From the NCBI GenBank assembly GCA_964613715.1, contig CAZTJK010000002.1, positions 40,355 through 104,354 on the forward strand: a stretch of 64,000 nt of DNA, given 5' to 3'. The translations under genes and the position numbers were made by a program. Below are positions 14,753-56,465 of the stretch, piece after piece (positions within the stretch are counted from its first letter, which is position 1; the number at the start of each line of letters is the position of its first letter). A model generated the notes under the pieces. That model was not told the origin of the DNA and searched no databases. It saw only the letters and a list, made by a program, of their open reading frames with translations. This stretch comes from an uncultured Candidatus Saccharibacteria bacterium (GTDB lineage: Bacteria; Patescibacteriota; Minisyncoccia; Phycocordibacterales; GWA1-40-21).

Positions 14753-14784
14753 GAGCTGCTCGTCTCACGCGAGCAGCTTTTTCG
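14753..14784. terminator. Bidirectional terminator between convergent genes
   Basis: gctgctcg-tctcac-cgagcagc hairpin with T-run after; miaA stop codon lies in the loop. Confidence 0.75.
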
Positions 14785-15655
14785 TTCTCCTGTATATGCG
14801 AGAGAATTGTTGTGGCTTAGACCACTGGATCTTCCTATTTTTCTTGAACCAGGTACGCTGGCGCTTTACATAGTGCCAGATTTCTTTTTTCAGGCTTTCC
14901 AGCATCTCGCTGTGCGAGATTTTTTTCTGTAGCAATAGCGCGATTTGACGGTATTCGAGCCCGAATGATTCGAGCCGTTTCCAGGAAACACCACCAGCAT
15001 GAAGCTTTCGCACTTCCTCAATCATACCAAGCTGCAAGCGTTTCTTGAGCCGTGTGGCAATCCTTTCTTTCAATGCCGCATCGGGCATATCGAGACCGAT
15101 ATAGGCAACTTCGTATTTTTCCGGTAATGCTTTTATTTCCGGCACATGGCCGAGCGTTTTCGCTATCTCGATTGCGCGGATGAGGCGGACTTTATTATGC
15201 TCGTCTATCGTTATTGCACGCTTTGGTGCATGCTTTCGGAGCATTGCAAAAAGTTCTGATGCCGATTTTGTTTCAAGATGTTTGCGCAGTTTCATATCGG
15301 GCTTTACGTCCGGCAATGAAATATTTTTTACGAGGCTATCTATATAAAATCCGGTACCGCCGACGATGATTGGCAGTTTTACTTTTGCAATGATTTTCTC
15401 GATCGCTTGTTCCCCGAGCTTTTTATATTGAGCGACTGAAAATCGAGTATTCGGGGAAACAACATCGAGCAGATGATGGGGAATGCCATGCATTTCATGT
15501 TTCGTGATCTTGCCCGAGCCGAGATTCATTCCTCGGTATACTTGGCGCGAATCGGCGGAAACGATTTCGCCATTGAATTTCTTGGCAAGCTGTACCGCGA
15601 TATCGCTTTTGCCGGTAGCCGTCGGACCGAGAATAACGAGAATATGAGGTTTCAT
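14765..15655 (-). CDS. miaA: tRNA dimethylallyltransferase
   Basis: MKPHILVILGPTATGKSDIAVQLAKKFNGEIVSADSRQVY...: P-loop GPTATGKS and ADSxQVY motif of MiaA; start trimmed to ATG 15655 because the longer ORF (to 15745) would overlap tRNA-Leu. Confidence 0.9.
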   Translation of the reverse strand: MKPHILVILGPTATGKSDIAVQLAKKFNGEIVSADSRQVYRGMNLGSGKITKHEMHGIPHHLLDVVSPNTRFSVAQYKKLGEQAIEKIIAKVKLPIIVGGTGFYIDSLVKNISLPDVKPDMKLRKHLETKSASELFAMLRKHAPKRAITIDEHNKVRLIRAIEIAKTLGHVPEIKALPEKYEVAYIGLDMPDAALKERIATRLKKRLQLGMIEEVRKLHAGGVSWKRLESFGLEYRQIALLLQKKISHSEMLESLKKEIWHYVKRQRTWFKKNRKIQWSKPQQFSRIYRRTKKLLA

Positions 15656-15660
15656 GTATG

Positions 15661-15743
15661 TGCCCGGGGAGAGACTCGAACTCTCATGACCTTGCGATCG
15701 CAGCATTTTGAGTGCTGTGCGTCTACCATTCCGCCACCCGGGC
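15661..15743 (-). tRNA. tRNA-Leu (anticodon CAA), class II with long variable arm
   Basis: rc sequence GCCCGGGTGGCGGAATGGTAGACGCACAGCACTCAAAATGCTGCGATCGCAAGGTCATGAGAGTTCGAGTCTCTCCCCGGGCA folds with acceptor GCCCGGG/CCCGGGC, anticodon loop CTCAAAA, 15-nt variable arm, T-arm GAGAG-TTCGAGT-CTCTC. Confidence 0.85.
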
Positions 15744-15821
15744 ATTTCTTCGCCATCATAGCAGTTTGGAACAAAAAATCAATTTTGCTGCCCGATTGTG
15801 GCATGATACAATCCAAACGCA

Positions 15822-27788: not shown

Positions 27789-28802
27789 ATGTCTTTTTTT
27801 ACTCGCAAACTCGGCATCGATCTCGGTACGGCGAATACTCTTGTCTTTCTGCCGAATAAGGGCGTAGTCCTTTTTGAGCCATCGGTGGTTGCCATCGCCG
27901 AGCAGGACAATAAGATTCTCGCAGTAGGACTTGAAGCGAAATCCATGATCGGCCGCACGCCGGATTCAATCATCGCGTATCGCCCGATGAAGGACGGCGT
28001 CATCGCGGACTATCGCGTGACGGAAGCGATGCTGCGCTATTTCATCGACAAGGCACTCGGCAAGTGGAATATCTTCAAGCCAGAGGTCATGGTTTCGGTG
28101 CCGGCTGGTATCACGTCGACGGAGCGCCGTGCAGTCGTTGAAGCAGCTATTCGCGCCGGTGCCAAGAATGCATATGTCGTGAAAGAGCCGATCCTTGCAG
28201 CGATCGGCGCGGGCATTCCTATTTATGAGCCGATGGGGCATATGATCGTGGATATTGGTGGTGGCACGACGGACGTTGCGGTTATATCGCTTGGTGGCAT
28301 CGTGGCATCGACATCAGTGAAATGCGCGGGCAATAAGATCGATGCGGCGATTGCTGACTATATCAAGAAAACATTCAATCTTGCGATCGGCGACAAGACA
28401 GCCGAGGATATCAAGATCAATATCGGTTCTGCCGTGCCGGTTGAGGACGAGCTTGCCATGATGATCAAGGGCCGTGATTTCCTCACAGGGCTTCCGCGCT
28501 CGACCGAAATCAAGACGAATGAAATTGTCAAAGCCATTTCAAAAGAATTGAAAGACATGATCAAGGCGATCAAGGATGTCTTGCAGGATACGCCGCCCGA
28601 GCTTGCCGCGGATATTATTGATAATGGTATCATCATGACCGGCGGCTCTTCGCAGCTGCGCAATCTGACCGAGCTTGTCTTCCGCCGTACGGGCGTCAAA
28701 GCGCAGGTTGCCAAGGACCCGCTCTATTGTGTGGCGAAGGGGACTGGTACTGCCCTTGAGCATCTTGATACCTACAAGAAGTCGATCATTGCAAAGCGAT
28801 AA
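27789..28802 (+). CDS. mreB: Rod shape-determining protein MreB paralog (Mbl-like second copy)
   Basis: 337 aa; actin-fold phosphate-1 (GIDLGTANTLV), DIGGGTTDVAVIS, GIIMTGGSSQLRNL. Confidence 0.85.
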   Translation: MSFFTRKLGIDLGTANTLVFLPNKGVVLFEPSVVAIAEQDNKILAVGLEAKSMIGRTPDSIIAYRPMKDGVIADYRVTEAMLRYFIDKALGKWNIFKPEVMVSVPAGITSTERRAVVEAAIRAGAKNAYVVKEPILAAIGAGIPIYEPMGHMIVDIGGGTTDVAVISLGGIVASTSVKCAGNKIDAAIADYIKKTFNLAIGDKTAEDIKINIGSAVPVEDELAMMIKGRDFLTGLPRSTEIKTNEIVKAISKELKDMIKAIKDVLQDTPPELAADIIDNGIIMTGGSSQLRNLTELVFRRTGVKAQVAKDPLYCVAKGTGTALEHLDTYKKSIIAKR

Positions 28803-33424: not shown

Positions 33425-34486
33425 ATGTTCGAAAGTCTCAAGAAAAAAATCCAGAAATATTTTTCAAACGATATCGGCATCGATCTCGGTACGGCCAATA
33501 CGCTGGTTTACCTTGCTGGCAAAGGCATCGTCATCAATGAGCCATCAGTGGTCGCGCTCAATCAAAAGACCGACCGCGTGGTCGCAGTCGGCGTGCAAGC
33601 GAAGGAAATGCTCGGCCGCACCCCGCCGCATATCGTTGCAGTCCGGCCGCTTGTCGACGGCGTTATTTCTGATTTCGAAGTGACGGAAGAAATGATCGCA
33701 TATCTCGTGAAAAAGGCTGAAGAGCTTTTGCCGAAAGTCATCGGGCCACGCGTGGTGGTCGGCGTGCCATCCGGCGTTACGAACGTGGAAATACGCGCTG
33801 TGCGTGATGCGACGCGAAATGCCGGCGCGCGCGAAGTGCATATCGTCGAGGAGCCAATGGCAGGTGCCATCGGCATTCGTCTGCCGATTCATGATCCGGT
33901 CGGCTCGATGGTAATCGATATCGGCGGGGGAACAACGGATATCGCCGTCATATCGCTTGGTGGCATCGTGCGTTCGAAGAATCTCAAGATCGCGGGCGAC
34001 AAGCTCAACAACGACATCGTGAGCTATATCCGCGGTGAGTTCAAGATACTCATCGGCGAAAAAACGGCCGAACAGATCAAAATGTCGATCGGTGCAGTCG
34101 TTTCCGGCGGGCATCTCGAATCGTCCATCAAAGGCCGCGACCTCATCACTGGCCTGCCACGCGAAGTAATACTCACAGATTCGGATGTCCGCGAAGCGAT
34201 GTCCCAATCGATCGAATCACTTGTCGATGCCACGAAAGAAGTGCTCGAGACCACGCCACCCGAGATTCTTGCCGATATCATGCAGCGTGGTATCTATCTT
34301 TTTGGCGGCGGCGCGCTCATCAAGGGCTTGGACGCGCTCTTGCACGAATATCTGAAAATTCCGGTGCGTATTGCTGATGACCCGCTTACGGCGGTTGCGC
34401 GCGGCACCGGCATCATCCTCGAGAATCTCGACACGTATCGCGACGTATTAATCCAGAACGAAGATGCCTTACCGCCAAAGAAATAA
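33425..34486 (+). CDS. mreB: Rod shape-determining protein MreB
   Basis: 353 aa; GIDLGTANTLVY, DIGGGTTDIAVIS, GIYLFGGGALIKGLD; followed by mreC-mreD-PBP2 as in canonical mre operons. Confidence 0.9.
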   Translation: MFESLKKKIQKYFSNDIGIDLGTANTLVYLAGKGIVINEPSVVALNQKTDRVVAVGVQAKEMLGRTPPHIVAVRPLVDGVISDFEVTEEMIAYLVKKAEELLPKVIGPRVVVGVPSGVTNVEIRAVRDATRNAGAREVHIVEEPMAGAIGIRLPIHDPVGSMVIDIGGGTTDIAVISLGGIVRSKNLKIAGDKLNNDIVSYIRGEFKILIGEKTAEQIKMSIGAVVSGGHLESSIKGRDLITGLPREVILTDSDVREAMSQSIESLVDATKEVLETTPPEILADIMQRGIYLFGGGALIKGLDALLHEYLKIPVRIADDPLTAVARGTGIILENLDTYRDVLIQNEDALPPKK

Positions 34487-35264
34487 TGAATTCGAGCGCG
34501 TCAATCGCCGGCTGAAGCTCATGCCGCTTGCTCTTGCTGCGCTCATCCTTCTCATCGTCCTGTTTTCTTTCTCCGGTCCGCGATCATTTCTATTTGCAGT
34601 TGCGAGACCTTTTTGGGGCGTGCGTGATAGTATCGCATCATTTTTCGATGAAGCCATCAGTCTTGTGGTATCGAAGTCATCGCTCATTGCTGAAAATGTA
34701 GCACTGAAAAAGCAGGTAAGCGATATGGCTCGCCAGCAGGCCCTCTACCTGATTACTCAAGAGGAGAATGCTGATCTGAAAGCGCTGTTTGGCAGAAAAA
34801 GCACGGAACGGCCAGTGCTTGCCCGCGTGCTGGTCAAGCCGACCTTTTCACCCTTTGACACCCTTTTGATTGATCTGGGCAGCGCCGACGGCATTGCCAT
34901 CGGCAATATCGTGCGCGCGGCGAGCTCTACCTCTATCGGCTTCGTATCAGAAGTATATGATCATACCGCAAAAGTAACGCTCTATTCGTCAGACGGGCAA
35001 AAGACGAAAGTCGAAGTGGGGAAGGCAGCAACACTCAAGGAAGCGACCGGTCTCGGCGGCGGGAATTTTTCCCTACAAATGCCGGTTGGCTCGGGCGTTC
35101 ATGTGGGCGATGCGATTGTCATGCCGTCAGTGTCCCCGAATATATTCAGCACGGTGCAGAAAGTGGAATTCAAGCCGACAGACTCGTTCGAGCGGGTGCT
35201 GTTTCAGCTGCCGGTCAATGTAAGCGAACTTGTATTTGTCGAAGTGCTCTTGTCGCAAAAATAA
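34464..35264 (+). CDS. mreC: Rod shape-determining protein MreC
   Basis: 266 aa; N-terminal TM, coiled-coil (ENVALKKQVSDMARQQA), C-terminal beta-barrel region with VLVKPT...D.LLIDLGS.DGI..G..V; start may be an internal ATG (34521) rather than the overlapping 34464. Confidence 0.75.
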   Translation: MPYRQRNNEFERVNRRLKLMPLALAALILLIVLFSFSGPRSFLFAVARPFWGVRDSIASFFDEAISLVVSKSSLIAENVALKKQVSDMARQQALYLITQEENADLKALFGRKSTERPVLARVLVKPTFSPFDTLLIDLGSADGIAIGNIVRAASSTSIGFVSEVYDHTAKVTLYSSDGQKTKVEVGKAATLKEATGLGGGNFSLQMPVGSGVHVGDAIVMPSVSPNIFSTVQKVEFKPTDSFERVLFQLPVNVSELVFVEVLLSQK

Positions 35265-42872: not shown

Positions 42873-44165
42873 ATGAAGGCCATATTCAAGAACATCGTCG
42901 TCGCAGCGCTCATCTGGGAATCGCAGATGATCCTTGCGAAATATAAGCCGAAAATAGTCGCAGTAACGGGCAGCGTGGGAAAGACATCGACGAAAGATGC
43001 GATCTTTACCGTCATGTCTCATTTTTTTCATGTCAGGAAGAGTGAAAAGAGCTTCAATAGCGATATCGGCATCCCGCTCACAATCATCGGCTGTGCCAAT
43101 GCCTGGTCTGATCCGGTGCTCTGGCTCAAGAATATCTTGCAGGGATTATTTCTCATCGTATTTCCGCATCATTATCCCGAGTGGCTCGTTCTTGAGGTGG
43201 GTGCTGACCGGCCCGGAGACATACAGAATATAACGCGCTGGCTGAAGCCAGATGTCGCTGTCGTCACTGCATTTGCCAAAGTGCCCGTCCATGTGGAGTT
43301 TTTTGCCGGCCGCGAAGCAGTCATTCGTGAAAAGCAGTACCTGGTAGAGGCGCTGAAGCATGACGGAATTCTCGTCGCCAATGGCGATGATGATGATGTG
43401 ATGCGCATGAAAGATGCCTCGAAAAACAAAGCAATTGTCTATGGCACCGATGCCGTAGCGGATCTTGTCGGTTCTGATAGCCAGATCCATTATGGACCAA
43501 ACAAAGAGATCGATGGCATGACCTTCAAGGTGCAATCAGAAAACAATATCGTGCCGATCGTCATCCGCGGCTCTCTCGGCATGCAGAATATGTATTCCGC
43601 GCTCGCTGCGCTTGCCGTAGGCCTCTCGCAGAAAGTGAATCTCGTCAAAGCGGCTGAAGCGTTTCTCGATCACGAAACGCCGCGCGGCCGCATGCGCATC
43701 ATTCCTGGCATCAAGGGCTCGACGGTCATCGATGATACCTATAATTCATCGCCGATCGCCGTTGCTTCAGCGCTTGCTACTCTGAAAAATATCAACACAA
43801 AAGGGACAAAGATCGCAGTGCTCGGCGACATGCTCGAGCTCGGCAAGCATTCCGTGGATGAGCATTATCGAGCAGGGAAGCAGGCCGCGGAAACAGCGGA
43901 TATTCTGATAGCAATCGGCATACGCGCGCGTAAAATTGCAGAAGGCGCGCTTGATGCCGGCATGCCCGACGGCAATATTTTTGAATATGACACTGCAGCA
44001 GAAGTGAAGACTGAGCTTGCCAACATGGTCAAAAAGCATGACATCATTCTCGTGAAAGGATCGCAGTCTATGCGCATGGAGCGCATTGTGGAAGCGCTCA
44101 TGGCCGCGCCAGAACAAGCGAAGGATCTTCTCGTGCGCCAGGATGAAGAGTGGAAAAAGAAATGA
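42873..44165 (+). CDS. murF: UDP-N-acetylmuramoyl-tripeptide--D-alanyl-D-alanine ligase
   Basis: 430 aa; Mur ligase P-loop VTGSVGKTSTK, central and C-terminal Mur ligase domains (IDDTYNSSP, GDMLELG). Confidence 0.8.
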   Translation: MKAIFKNIVVAALIWESQMILAKYKPKIVAVTGSVGKTSTKDAIFTVMSHFFHVRKSEKSFNSDIGIPLTIIGCANAWSDPVLWLKNILQGLFLIVFPHHYPEWLVLEVGADRPGDIQNITRWLKPDVAVVTAFAKVPVHVEFFAGREAVIREKQYLVEALKHDGILVANGDDDDVMRMKDASKNKAIVYGTDAVADLVGSDSQIHYGPNKEIDGMTFKVQSENNIVPIVIRGSLGMQNMYSALAALAVGLSQKVNLVKAAEAFLDHETPRGRMRIIPGIKGSTVIDDTYNSSPIAVASALATLKNINTKGTKIAVLGDMLELGKHSVDEHYRAGKQAAETADILIAIGIRARKIAEGALDAGMPDGNIFEYDTAAEVKTELANMVKKHDIILVKGSQSMRMERIVEALMAAPEQAKDLLVRQDEEWKKK

Positions 44166-44200
44166 TCAATTTTTTTGCTCAAGCGGACCTTCTTTTTTAT

Positions 44201-44228
44201 TTGACAATATAAGTAAATACTATATAAA
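44201..44228 (+). promoter_or_regulatory. Sigma-70-like promoter for the lipoprotein gene
   Basis: ttgaca - 16 nt - tataaa; followed by a structured leader of about 130 nt. Confidence 0.5.
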
Positions 44229-44266
44229 CCATAGCAGCTATCTGCTCTTTTAAAATCTACTTGCCT

Positions 44267-44327
44267 ACGGTCATAGCCAAGAGTTCTTCTACATTCTTTT
44301 GTATGGAGAATTGCTGGCTATGACCGT
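44267..44327 (+). promoter_or_regulatory. Large leader hairpin: 13-bp perfect inverted repeat (acggtcatagcca ... tggctatgaccgt) with 35-nt loop in the 5' UTR of the lipoprotein gene
   Basis: Arms at 44267-44279 and 44315-44327; preceded by a small hairpin + T-run at 44233-44252 and followed by RBS aaaaaggag at 44352. Confidence 0.4.
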
Positions 44328-44366
44328 TACCGGTCCTAGACTACTATTTGAAAAAGGAGCCTTACA

Positions 44367-44951
44367 ATGAAGCAAGGAAAGCCTGGCTTATGGATAGGCA
44401 GTATCGCATGCCTGCTGTTCGTATTCCTGTCTGGATGCGGACAGACAAAGATGGCAAGCATCCATAGGAAAATTTCAACTATGGAGGTTTGTCCAAGCAC
44501 CAACCAGCATTATGCCATCAACTTGCACAATGCTGGGATAGCATCTGGCACTGATCTCGTGGTAAGTGCGCCGAGCAATAGCGATCTCGGATTCCAATGG
44601 ATCTTCGACCAAGACTTGCCGATAAATCTTGGCCAAACGGTCAATACTGCGATTTACAGTGCAAAGGGGCAAATGGAGGGACCTTCGATGAATAATCCTT
44701 CCGTCCTTTTCATGAATTCAGGGAATCCGGGGACCTTTACCAAGGCTATCGTTACCCGGAACAGCCTTGATCAGGCAGGCAATTATCTGTGGGCTGTAAA
44801 GCTCGAAGCTAATTCCGGTGGTACAAATGTGTACTCCATTTCGTACAGTTCAGGAAATGGCTTCATCTATTTTCCGGAACATATCAGGAATTGCGAACCG
44901 TATTCGGAGGTGCACATCACCGGGGTTCTTAGTCGCTTCTTTATCCAGTAG
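44367..44951 (+). CDS. Putative lipoprotein (cargo gene 0 of islet)
   Basis: 194 aa; signal peptide with lipobox LSGC (Cys at position 24), strong RBS; no family recognised; G/S/N-rich mature domain. Confidence 0.6.
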   Translation: MKQGKPGLWIGSIACLLFVFLSGCGQTKMASIHRKISTMEVCPSTNQHYAINLHNAGIASGTDLVVSAPSNSDLGFQWIFDQDLPINLGQTVNTAIYSAKGQMEGPSMNNPSVLFMNSGNPGTFTKAIVTRNSLDQAGNYLWAVKLEANSGGTNVYSISYSSGNGFIYFPEHIRNCEPYSEVHITGVLSRFFIQ

Positions 44952-44985
44952 TGTTAACAGCTTACGCAAATGTGCTCAACATTGC

Positions 44986-45014
44986 ACCTCGTAGAAATAC
45001 GAGGTTTTTCTTTT
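44986..45014 (+). terminator. Rho-independent terminator after lipoprotein gene
   Basis: cctcgta-gaaa-tacgagg hairpin + TTTTTCTTTT. Confidence 0.75.
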
Positions 45015-45043
45015 GTGACCTCTGTTATCCAGAATTGGAACAC
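45015..45043. repeat. Repeat R1: tRNA-3'-end-like element (gtgacctctgttatccagaattggaacac)
   Basis: About 80% identical to R2 at 47103-47131; shares GTGACC with the tRNA-Glu acceptor end; contains conserved mini-hairpin tctg-ttatc-caga with compensatory changes relative to R2. Confidence 0.6.
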
Positions 45044-45186
45044 GATTTTTGAACATGTCAAAAACTTCTGGTCATTCCGACCCGATGAACAGGTAACCGA
45101 TACGGCATTCCTCGCCGCATGAATGAATTGTATGCAATACCGATTCATCCAAAAGAGGAAGAAAAATATCCATTTGGATAGGAAGA

Positions 45187-45429
45187 TCAGAACTGTCCTG
45201 TCCGCTTACTCCTGCTTTTCTTTCCGATTGATTTCATATGGTCCGGCAATGGCTCGGGGCTGGTATGGTCATACGCAATGCTCGGATTCTCAACCCCTTT
45301 ACTCTCCAGGAAGCACTGAAGGGCCAGCTGTGCTTGCTGGTAGAGGAGGTCACGGATCTCCCAGAGCTCGTCATCCGAGACATCCTTCAGTGCAGGATCG
45401 ACTTTTCTCAATTCTTCAAAGCTCAACAT
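45187..45429 (-). CDS. Hypothetical small protein A1 (divergent partner of XRE regulator, module 1)
   Basis: 80 aa; paralogous to 47217..47546(-) (MLSFEELRKVDPALKDVSDDELWEIRDLLYQQAQLALQCFLE vs MMTLKQLRELEPSLKDLPDHEVFRIRQLLYDHAMLALSCFLE). Confidence 0.55.
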   Translation of the reverse strand: MLSFEELRKVDPALKDVSDDELWEIRDLLYQQAQLALQCFLESKGVENPSIAYDHTSPEPLPDHMKSIGKKSRSKRTGQF

Positions 45430-45541
45430 GGTGTGTATTGGTTAGGTGGATAAAAGCACTCGTGTACGGTAGCACCTACAGGACGATTCAGGACCTATCC
45501 AAAAGGATGCTTTTCTCTAGCTTCTTCGTGCTACGTTCATT

Positions 45542-45760
45542 TTGTATCATCGCACTATGACTCTCAAAAACCATATTGGGCTCAATATCCGTCTCTATCG
45601 CCGGCTCAAAGGGCTGACGCAGGAGGAATTAGCCATCCAGGCAGGGATGCATGTGAATACAATCATTCAGCTTGAGGATCTAAGAAGGAAAGCGAATCCG
45701 AGGGTGGAGACGTTGGAGAGACTGGGGAGAGTGTTAAGGGTAAAGGTATGTTATATTTAA
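45542..45760 (+). CDS. XRE-family HTH transcriptional regulator (module 1)
   Basis: 72 aa; HTH LTQEELAIQAGMHVNTIIQLE; paralog of 47657..47896 including shared C-terminal ANPRVETLERLGRVL. Confidence 0.75.
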   Translation: MYHRTMTLKNHIGLNIRLYRRLKGLTQEELAIQAGMHVNTIIQLEDLRRKANPRVETLERLGRVLRVKVCYI

Positions 45761-45781
45761 GTTTTAAACTACAGTTATCAT

Positions 45782-46984
45782 ATGCTCGAAAAGTTGAAGA
45801 ATATTTCAAAGATCATATTCTTGGTTGCCACAGTCTTTTATATCTTCGGTTTTATAACCATTAGTTCTTTTTGGGGACGTTTTGGAATTATTACATTTGA
45901 TATCGTAAATGCCCGTTTTTTGATTGCGGGTTTTTTCTGCGTAGTTTCAATTATTGTTTGTCTTTTGTTAGCCTGGGTTGTTTATAAAAGAGCGCCATTT
46001 AAGGATTTTTTTAATACTGAAAAATGGCGTGACAGATTTTTAGGATTTTTTGGTATTTGGGGTCTTCTTTACAGTGCGGGAGCAGTACTAACTAGTCTTT
46101 TAAATCTTGGTAGCTATCAACCACCTGCAGTAGAGACTTCATTAAAATTTAGTAATGTGACCGGATTTGACTATATTGGTATTTTTATAAAAAACCACAT
46201 CAATCTTGGTAATGGTGGATATGACTACGTCATTAAGGTAACACTAGAAATGTTCAGTTATATTTTTTTAGTTTTTTTATTAATAACTGCCTGTGTAATT
46301 ATTCATGGTTGGTTTCCTAAGAAGGACAAAAAATCTCTGGTCAGTGTCGATCAAGCTAGTCCTGAAATAGTAACGGAAAAAGCTCAAGATATTTTGGTAA
46401 CAGATAAAAAACCGCTTAATAAATACCTCCTCTTGCTAATGGTTAATGTAGAAATACTTGCAATCTGCGGTTTTATTAGCCTCTATATATTTTGTATATC
46501 AAAAGTAGGTACTGCATTTATTGATTTTTCTACTATCCAAAATGAGCCAAAACTTACAGCAACACTCTATTTTTCCTGGTTGTATGTTCTAGTAATGACT
46601 ACTTATGTTTTTTTAAATATTTCTTTTAAAAATGATTCTTTTTCCAATTTCAATCTTTTTAAAAAGATTGAAAATATTACTAATTATGATGATTTAATCC
46701 GACAAATTATTATCCCCATATTCAGCGCTGCAGTTGTGTTTGGTTGGACAATTTATCCACGTATACCTTTTGCTTTCGGCGGAGGACAACCAAGGTTAAT
46801 TCAACTCCAGTTGACTACTCCTTTGAATGTTTCTTCAACTTCAAAAGTTTACCTTTTAGGGGAATCAAGCCAATTTGTTTTTGTCGCAATTGTTAATAAA
46901 ATCAATTCGGAAGCACTAGAAATAAATAAAAATCAAATTGAATATATACAAACAAAAACCTTATCTGTGACCAGCGCTAAATAA
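45782..46984 (+). CDS. Hypothetical polytopic membrane protein, strongly AT-rich (cargo gene 1)
   Basis: 400 aa, about 9-10 hydrophobic helices, F/I/L/N/K-rich; composition sharply different from host genes; 21 nt after the XRE gene, so probably co-transcribed. Confidence 0.6.
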   Translation: MLEKLKNISKIIFLVATVFYIFGFITISSFWGRFGIITFDIVNARFLIAGFFCVVSIIVCLLLAWVVYKRAPFKDFFNTEKWRDRFLGFFGIWGLLYSAGAVLTSLLNLGSYQPPAVETSLKFSNVTGFDYIGIFIKNHINLGNGGYDYVIKVTLEMFSYIFLVFLLITACVIIHGWFPKKDKKSLVSVDQASPEIVTEKAQDILVTDKKPLNKYLLLLMVNVEILAICGFISLYIFCISKVGTAFIDFSTIQNEPKLTATLYFSWLYVLVMTTYVFLNISFKNDSFSNFNLFKKIENITNYDDLIRQIIIPIFSAAVVFGWTIYPRIPFAFGGGQPRLIQLQLTTPLNVSSTSKVYLLGESSQFVFVAIVNKINSEALEINKNQIEYIQTKTLSVTSAK

Positions 46985-47131
46985 AAGTTAGGCCAGATCC
47001 ATTTCTTTTCTTGTTTCCAAATCCCGTTAGGGTAGCCACTAAACATATTTTGGGAACCAAAAAATAACGCCTTATTTCTTCAAAAATCTATATTTAAATG
47101 TGGTGACCTCCGTTATCCGGGATTGGAACAC
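46985..47131. repeat. Repeat copy A: about 145-bp element starting at the cargo-1 stop codon and ending in tRNA-3'-like R2 (tggtgacctccgttatccgggattggaacac)
   Basis: Roughly 75-80% identical (by eye) over about 100 bp to the segment 48626-48730 that forms the 3' trailer plus 3' end of tRNA-Glu. Confidence 0.6.
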
Positions 47132-47216
47132 CATTATTCTGTACCTCAAGAATTTCAAGGAGGTAATGGGGCAAGAAGTGGTCGACGGAATGGATAGTAA
47201 TATTTTATTACCTGCA

Positions 47217-47546
47217 TTATGACGTAGCTTCTTCCTGTTTCCGTTTCTTTTCCTTCAAGGTCTTTTCATCAAGCAGATATTCTTCAATAGCTCCTGACAG
47301 CTTGTTCGCAAACCGATTCTGCATATACATCTCTTCATTCCCGGTATGTGAATCTCTATCTGGCCATTCGGTCAGATACGGCAGGGTAGTAGGTAGCTCA
47401 ATGGATTTACCCGTTTTCGTCTCCAAGAAGCAGGATAGGGCAAGCATGGCATGGTCATAGAGAAGCTGTCGAATACGAAAGACTTCATGATCAGGAAGGT
47501 CTTTCAAACTAGGTTCAAGTTCGCGTAATTGTTTCAAGGTCATCAT
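47217..47546 (-). CDS. Hypothetical small protein A2 (divergent partner of XRE regulator, module 2)
   Basis: About 109 aa from the internal Met pair (MMTLKQLRE...), which aligns with the module-1 paralog start; ORF track extends to 47609. Confidence 0.55.
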   Translation of the reverse strand: MMTLKQLRELEPSLKDLPDHEVFRIRQLLYDHAMLALSCFLETKTGKSIELPTTLPYLTEWPDRDSHTGNEEMYMQNRFANKLSGAIEEYLLDEKTLKEKKRKQEEATS

Positions 47547-47656
47547 AGGTGTGGATAATTTAATAGCTTGTAATAGGGGAACTCTGCGGATATTTTCCGA
47601 GAACGGCACATTAGACCGTCTTACCTACAGAGCAGGGGGAACGTATAGTAAAAAAC

Positions 47657-47896
47657 ATGTATACAAATAATATTGGATTTAATCTCCGTATTCATCGGAG
47701 AGCAAAGGGACTCACCCAGGATCAGCTAGCCCAACAGTCAGGAGTGCACTACAACACTATCGTGCAGCTGGAGAATCTTACCCGGAAGGCGAATCCGAGG
47801 GTGGAGACGTTGGAGAGGTTGGGGAAGGTTCTTGGAGTAGAAATTGAAAAATTATTACAACAAAAGGTACAAGGGTTAGAAATTTTACAAAATTAA
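47657..47896 (+). CDS. XRE-family HTH transcriptional regulator (module 2)
   Basis: 79 aa; HTH LTQDQLAQQSGVHYNTIVQLE; paralog of 45542..45760. Confidence 0.75.
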   Translation: MYTNNIGFNLRIHRRAKGLTQDQLAQQSGVHYNTIVQLENLTRKANPRVETLERLGKVLGVEIEKLLQQKVQGLEILQN

Positions 47897-47923
47897 TATT
47901 TCGATTTAGAATTAGTTAAATTT

Positions 47924-48625
47924 ATGGGTACAGAATCAAAAGTTACTTTTTGGAATCCAGAGCAGGTTGAATTTGTTTTTCAAAGCTATTTACTTTTAGA
48001 GCGTAAGTTATTAGAAATTCTTAAAGTTTTACCTTTGACACCCGAGAATGAAAATTCTTGGTCTCCCGAGTTGGTAAACATATTTTTGGATACAAGCAGT
48101 TTATTTGAGTCTGTTTGTAAATACGGTGCCTTATATGAGAGTTCTGAACCAAAAATTACAGAAATGAAGGAAAAATTTTTAGAAAAAGATGAGATTAATC
48201 AAGCTCGGGCGATTGTCTACGTATATCCGATACGCATTCTTAATCCATATGATCATTTTTCTTCCGCTGATGGATGGTGGAGGGTCTATCAAGGTTTTAA
48301 ACACAATCGAATAGAAAATTACAAACAAGCAAATCTTATTAATACGCTAAATGTATTGGCCGCACTCTTTCTTATTTTAGCAAAATACAAACAAGAAGAA
48401 TTCTCTAAAGCTCTACTCAGATTCCGGATTACTGACACTGGTTTTGCACCGGAGTTTTTCCATAGAGAGAGGAGTGGCGATCCCCATAAATTTTGGTATG
48501 ACAGCGAACTTTTTGGTACCCCAGAACAAACTAATTCACTTTCTTCTAATGATCCAGCAGATATTAAGACTTATGGAAGCAAGAAATTTCATGCCTTTAT
48601 GGGTCGTTTTAACTTAGCTGCCTAA
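47924..48625 (+). CDS. Hypothetical soluble protein, AT-rich (cargo gene 2)
   Basis: 233 aa; no recognisable motifs; 27 nt after the XRE gene; composition foreign. Confidence 0.55.
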   Translation: MGTESKVTFWNPEQVEFVFQSYLLLERKLLEILKVLPLTPENENSWSPELVNIFLDTSSLFESVCKYGALYESSEPKITEMKEKFLEKDEINQARAIVYVYPIRILNPYDHFSSADGWWRVYQGFKHNRIENYKQANLINTLNVLAALFLILAKYKQEEFSKALLRFRITDTGFAPEFFHRERSGDPHKFWYDSELFGTPEQTNSLSSNDPADIKTYGSKKFHAFMGRFNLAA

Positions 48626-48720
48626 AGTTAGTGGTTCCAAATCCTGTTAGGGTACCCATGTTTAGAATTTCAAACCTCTGAAAATATTGCCTCATTTTCT
48701 CACAAATCTACATTTAACTG
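48626..48720. repeat. Repeat copy B: conserved 3' trailer of tRNA-Glu, homologous to copy A
   Basis: Begins at the cargo-2 stop codon, runs to the CCA end of tRNA-Glu; shares ccaaatcc(c/t)gttagggta... and aaatcta(t/c)atttaa(a/c)tgtggtgacc with copy A. Confidence 0.6.
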
Positions 48721-48795
48721 TGGTGACCTTACGGGGAATCGAACCCCGATTACAGGCTTGAGAAGCCCGTGTCCTAACCGTTAGACGATAAGGCC
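48721..48795 (-). tRNA. tRNA-Glu (anticodon CTC) with encoded CCA
   Basis: rc sequence GGCCTTATCGTCTAACGGTTAGGACACGGGCTTCTCAAGCCTGTAATCGGGGTTCGATTCCCCGTAAGGTCACCA: acceptor 7 bp (one GT), D-stem GTCT/GGAC, anticodon stem CGGGC/GCCTG, loop TTCTCAA, T-arm CGGGG-TTCGATT-CCCCG, discriminator A, CCA. Confidence 0.8.
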
Positions 48796-55104: not shown

Positions 55105-55140
55105 AAAGGGCGGCGGGCCTTCGGCCCGCCGCCCTTTTGT
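55105..55140 (+). terminator. Rho-independent terminator
   Basis: gggcggcgggcc-ttcg-ggcccgccgccc hairpin + TTTTGT. Confidence 0.85.
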
Positions 55141-55178
55141 ATTCAAGCCCATTTTTGCTATACTGTCCCTATACAGCC

Positions 55179-56465
55179 ATGTCAAACGTCGTTCTCAATT
55201 CCATACAACACTCCCTGTCCCCGGCAGTCCTCAAGTTCCTCATCATCGTCTTGCCGATAGCGATCCCGCTCATCCTGATCTATACCTGGTGGGTGCTGCG
55301 CCTGCGCTATATCCAGATAAAGTTCATTGAAAAGCAGAAGCCCTGTTTGCTTGAAATCAAGCTGCCGAAGGAGATATTCAAGTCTCCGGCCGCTATGGAA
55401 ATATTCTTCTCCTACCTGGCTCCCGGCGGCGCCGGAAATATCGGCGAGGCGTTCATCGATGGCGAAACGCGACCATGCTTTTCCTGCGAGCTTGTTTCCA
55501 CCGAAGGGGAAGTGCGTTTTTTCATTTGGTGCCGCCAGGTCAAGTATAAGTCGATAGTCGAGGCACAACTCTATGCCCAGTATCCGAATGTTGAGATTTA
55601 CGAAGTGCCGGAGGCCGAAGCCTATACGAATAGTATCGTATTTGATCTCGACAAATATGCGATCAATTTGATGCAATTCGGCTTTACGAAGCCCGATCCA
55701 TACCCGATAAAGACATACATTGACTATGGCCTCGACCAGGATCAGAAAGACGAATACAAGATCGACCCGATGACTGCCGTTATCGAATTCTTGGGCTCCA
55801 TAAAGAAAGGCGAGCATGTCTGGATACAGATTCTCATTCAGAAGCACGAAAAGGAGGATTGGAAGCATGGCGTCTGGAAGGCCGAGAAAGATCTCAAAAA
55901 GGAGACCGAAAAGGAGATAGAAGCAATCCGCCAGAAAGCCGTGCCGAAATCAGAAGATGACGACGAGAAGACATTCAAATTCCCGAATCCGACGAAGACC
56001 CAGACGGAAATCATCACCGCGCTTGAGCGTAGTGCCGGCAAGCAGGCATTCGATACCATGATCCGCACGGCATATATCGCTGAGAAAAGTTCCTTCAACA
56101 AGATCATGCTTTCAGCGATGTCCGGCGCATTCCGCCAGTATGGTTCCCAGCATCTAAACGGCCTGAAGCCAGTATTCGGTACGGACTTAAATAATTTCCA
56201 GAAGGATATCAGCCGCATTTTTCCGTTCCTTGAAAAAGGATTTACAAAAAAGGTAAACGGCTATCGCAAAAAGCTTTTCCATGCCTACAAGCTCCGCTCA
56301 TTCTTCCAGTGGCCGTACAAGTTTTACAAGGCAAAGCCATTTATCATGACCACCGAAGAGCTTGCCACCATTTTCCATTTCCCGAGTATCATCGTCTCCC
56401 AGACGCCGACTTTGAAGCGCGTCAGCTCGAAGAAATCCGAGGCGCCGTCAAACCTGCCGATATAA
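55179..56465 (+). CDS. Hypothetical membrane-anchored protein
   Basis: About 428 aa from ATG 55179 (tatact -10 box 13 nt upstream, leaderless-like); N-terminal TM, then soluble K/E-rich domain; no family recognised. Confidence 0.55.
   Translation: MSNVVLNSIQHSLSPAVLKFLIIVLPIAIPLILIYTWWVLRLRYIQIKFIEKQKPCLLEIKLPKEIFKSPAAMEIFFSYLAPGGAGNIGEAFIDGETRPCFSCELVSTEGEVRFFIWCRQVKYKSIVEAQLYAQYPNVEIYEVPEAEAYTNSIVFDLDKYAINLMQFGFTKPDPYPIKTYIDYGLDQDQKDEYKIDPMTAVIEFLGSIKKGEHVWIQILIQKHEKEDWKHGVWKAEKDLKKETEKEIEAIRQKAVPKSEDDDEKTFKFPNPTKTQTEIITALERSAGKQAFDTMIRTAYIAEKSSFNKIMLSAMSGAFRQYGSQHLNGLKPVFGTDLNNFQKDISRIFPFLEKGFTKKVNGYRKKLFHAYKLRSFFQWPYKFYKAKPFIMTTEELATIFHFPSIIVSQTPTLKRVSSKKSEAPSNLPI

Follow-up and report, generated by a model that had tools for sequence, protein, structure and literature searches.

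Integrative mobile elements exploiting Xer recombination (IMEXs) carry no integrase and use the host XerCD enzymes at dif, as in the CTX and TLC arrays. Cis-mobilizable elements (CIMEs) have been described as heterogeneous decay products of larger integrative conjugative elements and integrative mobilizable elements (PMC5704250). The tycheposons of Prochlorococcus, which often include a replication module, all encode their own recombinase, of the tyrosine (910 of 937 elements) or the large serine type (bioRxiv 10.1101/2020.12.28.424599). The genomes of the candidate phyla radiation (CPR, Patescibacteria) are tiny, and little is known of how they acquire and shuffle accessory genes. Here we analyse 64,000 nt (the window) of a genome assigned to Candidatus Paceibacterota, a CPR lineage (assembly GCA_964613715.1, contig CAZTJK010000002.1, 40,355-104,354 of the forward strand; all positions are those of the window). 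An initial annotation of this stretch had proposed that small elements integrated serially into one tRNA gene behind murF, in the division and cell wall (dcw) operon. With a probability of roughly 70%, we propose that positions 45015-48728 are a tandem array of two small site-specific integrative cassettes that resemble CIMEs and are serviced in trans.

The two units, E2 (45015-47108; core-to-core period 2,088 bp) and E3 (47101-48728; 1,620 bp), share one order: a terminal block, a small gene on the minus strand, an XRE-family regulator gene and a cargo gene on the plus strand, an arm and a core (Table 1). Read away from the tRNA, this order is reversed and the arm comes first. All genes called by the initial annotation (murF, the lipoprotein gene, small1 and small2, XRE1 and XRE2, the 400-aa and the 233-aa gene) are present, as is the minus-strand tRNA-Glu at the end of the array. 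In local alignments scored against 500 dinucleotide shuffles, the arms (46985-47108 and 48626-48729) match over about 100 nt at 84-89% identity (z = 21) and the blocks (45015-45186 and 47103-47216) over 54 nt at 76% (z = 14), so the repeats that had been noticed are significantly similar. No such similarity to the other arms is seen in 44952-45014, which precedes the first core (z = 0.9) and represents the terminator hairpin of the lipoprotein gene. There are therefore two repeat-bounded units and not the three cassettes annotated before; the lipoprotein gene itself lacks cassette features.

The core that matches the tRNA is short (6-11 nt), with GTGACC at the outermost junction R1 and TGTGGTGACCT at junctions R2 and R3. 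The repeats do share sequence with the tRNA-Glu 3' end as annotated, but they do not look like extended partial tRNA copies: beyond the core, comparison of the block with the tRNA body gave z = 1.4 and -0.1, and the Rfam tRNA model found no match there even at E <= 10. A structured RNA in the block was likewise considered and rejected (RNA fold z = 0.36, no Rfam family). The ends of the units are marked by GTTCCAATyyyGnATAAC plus the tRNA end in the block and by TTTAAAT ... GGATTTGGAAC in the arm, and the junction segment contains the inverted motifs TTCCAAATCCCG and CGGGATTGGAAC.

At R1 the E2 block is joined through GGTCAC to the native flank, at R2 the E2 arm through the core to the E3 block, and at R3 the E3 arm through the core to the tRNA. 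In the relatives L007 (13751-13823) and L008 (13976-14048), whose site is empty, tRNA-Glu(ctc) ends with ...GTAAGGTCAC, followed by an A-run and a hairpin. On the minus strand the R1 flank reads GGTCAC/AAAAGAAAAACCTCGTATTTCTACGAGG (the slash marks the junction), compared with GGTCAC/AAATTTAAAAGAGGTTAAACAAACCTCG in these relatives; R1 is hence a hybrid in which GGTCAC/AAAAGAAAAA and the hairpin, arranged as they are after an empty-site tRNA, are fused to the E2 block. The tRNA of the window reads GGTCACCA/CAGTTAAAT... and runs on into the E3 arm. Whereas occupied tRNA-Glu genes (48721-48728 in the window; also L014 and L023) read GGTCACCA, the native tRNA of L007 and L008 reads GGTCAC/AAA and lacks an encoded CCA, and therefore the inserted element, here E3, supplies the CCA end. 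This anatomy is the pattern expected of an attP x attB exchange within GGTCAC, with R1 as the putative attL, R3 as the putative attR, and R2 probably formed when another unit entered the attR left by the earlier one.

The position of the array beside the dcw cluster is older than the array. In three relatives (L004, L007 and L008), mraZ-rsmH-ftsL-ftsI-murF are followed by 0.7-2.7 kb of variable genes, a minus-strand tRNA-Glu(ctc), about 1.5 kb of further sequence and yqeY-rmuC-leuS. None of these three loci contains the small, XRE or cargo genes, and all hold murF and tRNA-Glu(ctc) without cassettes. Because the murF end and tRNA-Glu keep this order in all three, the end of the dcw cluster at murF beside tRNA-Glu is ancestral and was not made by the array; the view of the dcw operon as interrupted by some 4.5 kb of foreign DNA is corrected accordingly.

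The same design recurs at other tRNA genes. Homologues of the small protein are rare (10 in 5.8 billion clusters, even with a profile), and in most recovered contigs an XRE gene adjoins the small gene, the exceptions being the deletion variant L023 and the serine-recombinase loci L014 and L026 (this count leaves out a 664-nt contig of P0025). The 99-kb contig L013 shows tRNA-Lys(ttt), an arm, a gene for a 301-aa membrane protein (-), XRE (-), small (+), a block ending in TGGGGCACA and a chromosomal hairpin. L010 is 99.99% identical to L013 over 9,895 nt. The two part within the terminal bases of tRNA-Lys, past which L010 carries the block and small gene of a second unit with 75% DNA identity to E3 of the window; this difference is an insertion polymorphism with the geometry of R2. 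At tRNA-Glu(ttc), L024 carries genes for an OLD/AriA/GajA-like ATPase and a transmembrane HEPN/DUF4145 protein (-), XRE (-), small (+) and a block ending in GCGTCACCA, beyond which follow further arm-like sequence (GGGTACCCTAcggGGATTTGGAACC) and a 194-aa gene. L023 (NCBI) and a variant from Logan lie at this chromosomal site too, the tRNA-Glu(ttc) hotspot, but hold different content, drawn from small and XRE genes and genes for a DUF4145 protein matching PD-T7-4, for a DUF4238 protein and for a 225-aa protein. In L023 a truncated DUF4238 gene runs into the small gene, and in the Logan variant the DUF4238 gene is full-length and the 225-aa and XRE genes are present; this is an internal deletion polymorphism, not a whole-unit difference. 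L011, a 3.2-kb Logan contig, encodes an Abi_C protein near a small-XRE module. Its small gene occurs twice in inverted orientation (321-665 and 932-1276), a probable fold-back assembly artefact that was not used for architecture.

Conservation of the block extends to L010, L011, L012, L013 and L024 and stops abruptly at the core; the sequences past this edge are mutually unrelated. Its last 5-11 nt match the end of the host tRNA (11 nt in E3, about 5 nt in L010 and L024). The module is thus found at three tRNA species, tRNA-Glu(ctc), tRNA-Lys(ttt) and tRNA-Glu(ttc), and at least five complete or near-complete units (E2, E3, L013, L024 and the Logan variant of L023) and three partial ones (L010, L011 and L012) follow one minimal order, with one, occasionally two, cargo genes and a size of roughly 1.6-3.2 kb where measurable. 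Junctions R1-R3, the recurrence at tRNA-Lys and tRNA-Glu(ttc) and the break between L010 and L013 support the original proposal of serial site-specific insertion at one tRNA 3' end, serviced in trans. A viral origin was also considered and set aside: IMG/VR (2.9 million viral contigs) contains no relative of the small family, and nine matches to the block pattern in it are chance hits without extended similarity.

On the basis of this anatomy, we propose a model in which first E2 and then E3 would have been inserted at the last bases (GGTCAC) of tRNA-Glu(ctc), each incoming unit displacing the earlier one from the tRNA and leaving the tRNA intact. A cassette would consist of a fixed scaffold (block, small gene, control region and XRE gene), one AT-rich cargo gene with its own promoter-like site, and the arm. 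In the predicted circular form, arm, core and block would together constitute an attP some 220 bp long, formed in E3 by joining 48626-48728 to 47109-47216 and in E2 by joining 46985-47108 to 45021-45186. Strand exchange within the terminal acceptor bases of the tRNA would be carried out by a recombinase acting in trans. The empty attB is predicted to read ...CGAGGTTTTTCTTTTGTGACC/TTACGGGGAATCG, and the attP of a helper element would be expected to hold ATAACnnnGGTCACCA...TTAAAT.

The base composition of the units breaks within them. The cargo genes are as conspicuously AT-rich as annotated, with 31.7% (400-aa gene) and 35.3% GC (233-aa gene) against 50.2 +/- 3.3% (minimum 39.4%) in 55 other genes of the window, but foreign composition does not extend over the whole array. 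The AT-rich part does not begin where the unit does but in the 3' end of both XRE genes: inside XRE1, GC falls at 45728 from 49.5% to 27%, and inside XRE2 at 47828 from 49% to 25%. The scaffold (block, small gene and most of XRE) is host-like in GC, and XRE tail, cargo and arm have 25-35%. DNA homology between E2 and E3 stops exactly at this drop. Directly before it lie 29 nt (45692-45720 and 47789-47817) that are identical in the two XRE genes, which elsewhere are about 71% identical; this stretch looks like a gene-conversion tract or a cargo-swap breakpoint. The scaffold appears to be long resident in a genome of about 50% GC, and XRE tail, cargo and arm appear to be recent imports from an AT-rich source. 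To judge from composition, this split suggests that cargo was replaced within a resident scaffold, besides the insertion of whole units.

In agreement with the initial annotation, no tyrosine or serine recombinase is encoded in the array: Pfam, PADLOC, PHROG and NCBIfam scans of all its open reading frames (ORFs) detected neither a recombinase nor transfer genes. Searches over all ORFs of the window with phmmer, using the serine recombinase of L014 and a hand-typed XerD sequence, gave nothing below E 0.4, and Pfam scans of 31 window ORFs, including those of the array, returned housekeeping families or no match and no recombinase. A possible helper is seen in L014, L026 and L027, which stem from an organism of 55-57% GC and contain a 63-aa gene of the small family (profile E 2.9e-14). 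In L014 and L026 this gene lies 18 nt upstream of a gene for a 508-aa large serine recombinase (Resolvase, Recombinase and Zn_ribbon_recom domains), and the recombinase ORF runs into tRNA-Glu(ctc) at a GGTCAC/CA junction, the same as in the window. The recombinase frame of L014 (861-2387) enters the tRNA on the opposite strand (2347-2421) by 41 nt, so that the tRNA 3' end, read in reverse complement, provides its final 13 codons. We consider large serine recombinases a candidate type of helper only, and a directionality or accessory role of the small protein is conceivable.

The regulatory modules of the two units are clearly paralogous, as had been claimed, with 47% identity between small1 and small2 (E 3e-16) and 68% between XRE1 and XRE2 (E 2e-30). 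The AlphaFold2 model of small2 is all-helical; Pfam, PADLOC, PHROG and NCBIfam contain no match to the small proteins, and fold and sequence searches for a known counterpart were equally fruitless. The control region between the small and XRE genes is conserved across seven units, with a palindrome at one place whose arms differ and yet remain roughly complementary (alignment read by eye). The operator-like palindrome TATCCAnnnGGATA occurs twice around small1, at 45494-45516 in the control region and at 45160-45182 in the terminal block. The cargo gene starts 21-27 nt 3' of the short XRE gene, and a promoter-like site at 47884-47912 lies in the AT-rich tail of XRE2, just upstream of the 233-aa gene. 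The XRE proteins match the capH, control-protein and RmrA models of PADLOC and repressor families of PHROG. We think it probable that the small protein either partners XRE in a CI/Cro-like switch or assists recombination as an accessory factor.

The families of both cargo proteins occur in defence-type neighbourhoods. The 400-aa membrane protein has no Pfam domain; its family comprises about 75 cluster representatives at E < 1e-10, and its nearest relative (60% identity) is encoded after a type III-like Mod and Res gene pair. The 233-aa protein, p233, has a HEPN-like fold with the four-helix up-down arrangement and has no match in Pfam, PHROG or NCBIfam scans, nor at sequence level to HEPN models, the HEPN and Abi_C cargo of sister units, or chains in the PDB. 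Residues K126-H127-N128-R129 and H180/R183 are invariant in its family. Relatives of p233 are found in three settings: in a type I restriction-modification operon, where the gene is flanked by hsdM and hsdS; alongside genes for a PLD-SNF2 protein and an MmeI-type methyltransferase; and on a conjugative CPR element with relaxase, coupling protein and ArdC. HEPN/DUF4145 and Abi_C proteins are encoded in sister units or adjacent to them, and the PADLOC matches to OLD/AriA/GajA-like and PD-T7-4 models fall on such neighbouring and sister genes. On the grounds of fold and neighbourhood, the cargo proteins are probably abortive-infection or other defence effectors under XRE control; these neighbourhoods and the HEPN and Abi_C proteins of sister units support a defence role but do not prove it. 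The guess that regulator and cargo form a defence package therefore gains indirect support from context and fold. The unit cargo at 6708-7619 of L024 and the gene beside the module at 2110-3009 of L011, both of HEPN type, share a similar acidic C-terminal tail (EEDVPsEeEIEAavDAy...krGK) on differing bodies.

The lipoprotein gene is a chromosomal neighbour of the array. Its composition is host-like (47.5% GC; 0.54 at third codon positions), it has its own terminator (hairpin 44986-45005 and a T-run), no arm or block repeat was found to its left, and its product has no Pfam, PADLOC, PHROG or NCBIfam match. It is absent from the relatives, where other genes occupy the same place. Between murF and this gene lies a strong inverted repeat (44267-44327; 21-nt arms, 86% complementary, 19-nt loop), which is unrelated to the cassette ends. 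Elsewhere in the window, this small CPR genome encodes two full-length MreB paralogues and MreC (27789-28802, 33425-34486 and 34464-35264). The longest miaA ORF (IPP transferase, 14765-15745) covers the whole of tRNA-Leu(caa) (15660-15743) on the same strand; given this overlap, the true miaA start must lie further downstream, and the ORF is not an integrase. Two sizeable ORFs, 55137-56465 (442 aa) and 299-976 (225 aa), have no Pfam domain, and the 442-aa ORF is conserved with 55% identity in L004, the only locus that reaches that far.

Table 1. Positions of the cassette array, its parts and its neighbours in the window.
Feature	Position	Strand	Remarks
murF	42873-44165		last dcw gene before the array
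Lipoprotein gene	44367-44951	+	lipobox LSGC; chromosomal neighbour of the array
Native flank	44952-45014		A-run and hairpin normally downstream of tRNA-Glu; now 3.7 kb from the tRNA
Core copy 1, GTGACC	45015-45020		attL-like junction R1
Terminal block of E2	45021-45186	-	non-coding; motif GTTCCAATyyyGnATAAC; operator-like palindrome 45160-45182
small1 (80 aa)	45187-45429	-	new small helical protein family
Divergent control region of E2	45430-45541		operator-like palindrome 45494-45516
XRE1 (72 aa, HTH_3)	45542-45760	+	Pfam PF01381, E 8e-9, above gathering score
400-aa polytopic membrane protein (E2 cargo)	45782-46984	+	uncharacterised family; GC 31.7%
Arm of E2	46985-47098		non-coding, cargo-proximal; 84-89% identical to E3 arm
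Core copy 2, TGTGGTGACCT	47099-47109		junction R2 between E2 and E3; same as 48719-48729
Terminal block of E3	47110-47216	-	75% DNA homology with L010, L011 and L012 begins here
small2 (109 aa from M22)	47217-47546	-	ORF extends to 47609; start probably M22 (47546)
Divergent control region of E3	47547-47656		conserved between units
XRE2 (79 aa, HTH_3)	47657-47896	+	Pfam PF01381, E 4e-12, above gathering score
233-aa soluble protein p233 (E3 cargo)	47924-48625	+	HEPN-like fold
Arm of E3	48626-48718		repeat of E2 arm
Core copy 3, TGTGGTGACCT	48719-48729		junction R3; overlaps tRNA 3' end
tRNA-Glu(ctc)	48721-48795	-	intact; ARAGORN, Rfam 61.8 bits

Several observations weigh against the reading as integrative cassettes. 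The empty-site relatives, metagenome-assembled genomes of Candidatus Paceibacterota or Patescibacteria, are distant (62-64% MurF identity). Three Logan contigs with proteins of the window are 100% identical to it and end inside genes or the tRNA, and among these three neither an excised circle nor a same-strain empty site or an alternative junction was seen for the copies of the window. No recombinase was found in the 64 kb. The small gene of L014 is reversed relative to the tRNA and its contig comes from a higher-GC organism (55-57%), which makes the link to the serine recombinase weak; moreover, arms of about 100 nt with the inverted motifs TTCCAAATCCCG and CGGGATTGGAAC look more like the attP of a tyrosine integrase. 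As to cargo, no invariant Rx4-6H motif of HEPN proteins is evident in p233, PADLOC matches neither p233 nor the 400-aa protein, and the defence role is read from fold and neighbourhood only. Finally, the host-like scaffold and the 29-nt identity of the XRE genes suggest long residence and gene conversion, so that the copies in the window may be fixed and their cargo replaced by recombination, not by movement of whole units.

A bolder version of our model, which we regard as tentative and on balance doubtful, takes the small-XRE scaffold with its block and arm ends for a dedicated integrase-free cassette vehicle of Paceibacterota, a tRNA-anchored functional analogue of integrons. The 3' end of XRE would hold the breakpoint at which single defence genes are swapped into a resident scaffold, the insertion or excision of whole units would fall to the recombinase of another element, and the small protein would be a new directionality or accessory factor. 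Such a role in recombination would account for the homologue that immediately precedes a large serine recombinase gene at the same tRNA-Glu junction.

The points on long residence lead to a different explanation, a fixed defence hotspot in which a small-XRE-effector locus beside tRNA-Glu underwent tandem duplication by unequal crossing-over and its effectors were swapped by homologous recombination through the scaffold, with no present site-specific recombination. Such a history would fit the host-like GC of the scaffold next to an AT-rich XRE tail, cargo and arm, the 29-nt XRE identity, which lies exactly at the end of homology and would serve as a recombination breakpoint, the lack of a recombinase in the window, and the difference between L023 and its Logan variant, which is an internal deletion and not a whole unit. 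However, unequal crossing-over does not account for the hybrid R1 junction at the exact tRNA end, and the hotspot leaves unexplained why block ends match three different tRNA species, why one block (75% DNA identity) stands beside unrelated flanks in L010, L011 and L012, and why L010 and L013 diverge inside tRNA-Lys. We consider this explanation unlikely, although it survives best among the rivals of site-specific insertion.

Improbable, too, is the origin of both units from larger elements, whether prophages or integrative conjugative or mobilizable elements, through loss of the integrase and most other genes, which would make them classical CIMEs, formed by deletion and without a dedicated minimal design. 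Tandem accretion with decayed integrase-less elements is a documented route to such arrays (PMC5704250), and a divergent CI/Cro-like pair is typical of phage and satellite control regions, in line with the PHROG repressor matches of the XRE proteins. Random decay should yield heterogeneous remnants, however, and the at least five complete or near-complete and three partial units keep one minimal order within about 1.6-3.2 kb. None of them holds pseudogenes of integrase, replication, capsid or transfer functions, and no small-family relative was found among the 2.9 million viral contigs.

Very improbable is an integron-like array, in which an IntI-like enzyme from elsewhere in the genome would recombine the segments between cassettes as single-stranded, folded sites of the attC type. 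In its favour, the R2 segment as single-stranded DNA folds better than shuffles (z = -3.0 and -2.2) through TTCCAAATCCCG and CGGGATTGGAAC, GTTAGGC after the stop codon of the 400-aa gene fits GTTRRRY, and each unit has a single gene. Against it, the crossover maps to the tRNA-end core inside the 'loop' and not to an R-box at the stem base, R3 has GTTAGTG and no GTTRRRY match, regulators and promoters are present in every unit, the window ORFs screened gave no sign of an intI/attI/Pc platform, and the array is anchored on a tRNA gene. Of the alternative first offered for this locus, a cassette array serviced in trans, the service in trans is supported and the integron-type attC array is not. 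By inspection of the sequence, CGCATAA and TTAAAT resemble the arms of a dif/Xer site, but their spacing is 15-19 nt instead of 11, and this candidate was set aside.

If site-specific insertion in trans is correct, the units would show how defence genes can arrive singly at tRNA genes of this phylum and accumulate there, by a route that is compact and easy to recognise, with end motifs that can be searched for. Two or more candidate defence families so far uncharacterised (those of the 233-aa HEPN-like protein and the 400-aa membrane protein) would be added, as would a new family of small proteins, tied both to an XRE switch and to a serine recombinase and potentially acting as accessory factors in recombination.

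Compared with known systems, the proposed cassettes share with XRE-regulated abortive-infection, toxin-antitoxin and defence operons the short XRE gene 21-27 nt upstream of the effector, the HEPN and Abi_C effectors of sister units, the HEPN-like fold of p233 and the capH-type match. Here, by contrast, a divergent small protein of a new family is a constant third partner, att-like ends bound the unit, and the two cargo families of the window match no known defence model in PADLOC. IMEXs offer a functional analogy in that they lack an integrase, depend on a recombinase in trans and stack in tandem at one site; the target here is a tRNA 3' end instead of dif, and the 13-19 nt spacing of the inverted ATAAC and GTTAA-type motifs is unfit for a 28-bp dif. 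Integron cassettes are likewise tandem units of one cargo gene with a structured segment between them and the recombinase outside, but the present units have no attC R-box logic and no detected IntI/attI/Pc platform, bring their own regulatory pair and promoter-like sites, and are tRNA-anchored. Tycheposons resemble them as cargo elements at tRNA genes of a streamlined genome, with older units pushed inward and defence cargo; they exceed the present units by several kb and have recognisable partial tRNAs at their flanks (bioRxiv 10.1101/2020.12.28.424599), whereas the units described here have only a tRNA-matching core of 8-11 nt and no recombinase or replication genes, so that the site-specific recombinase of its own that marks a tycheposon or an element like the phage-inducible chromosomal islands is absent. 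The closest likeness is to tandem accretion with CIMEs, as in the ICESt1-type arrays of Streptococcus, which have att-type direct repeats, lack integrase and transfer genes, and are stacked at the 3' end of the target with the newest unit beside the intact target. Two differences are that no adjacent integrating element for mobilisation in cis was found here, and that no pseudogene remnants of integration or transfer modules point to decay. Whereas CIMEs are heterogeneous, one minimal design recurs here across several genomes and three tRNA species. As a whole, the array fits the way in which tandem accretion with CIMEs is defined, and what sets it apart is this uniformity.

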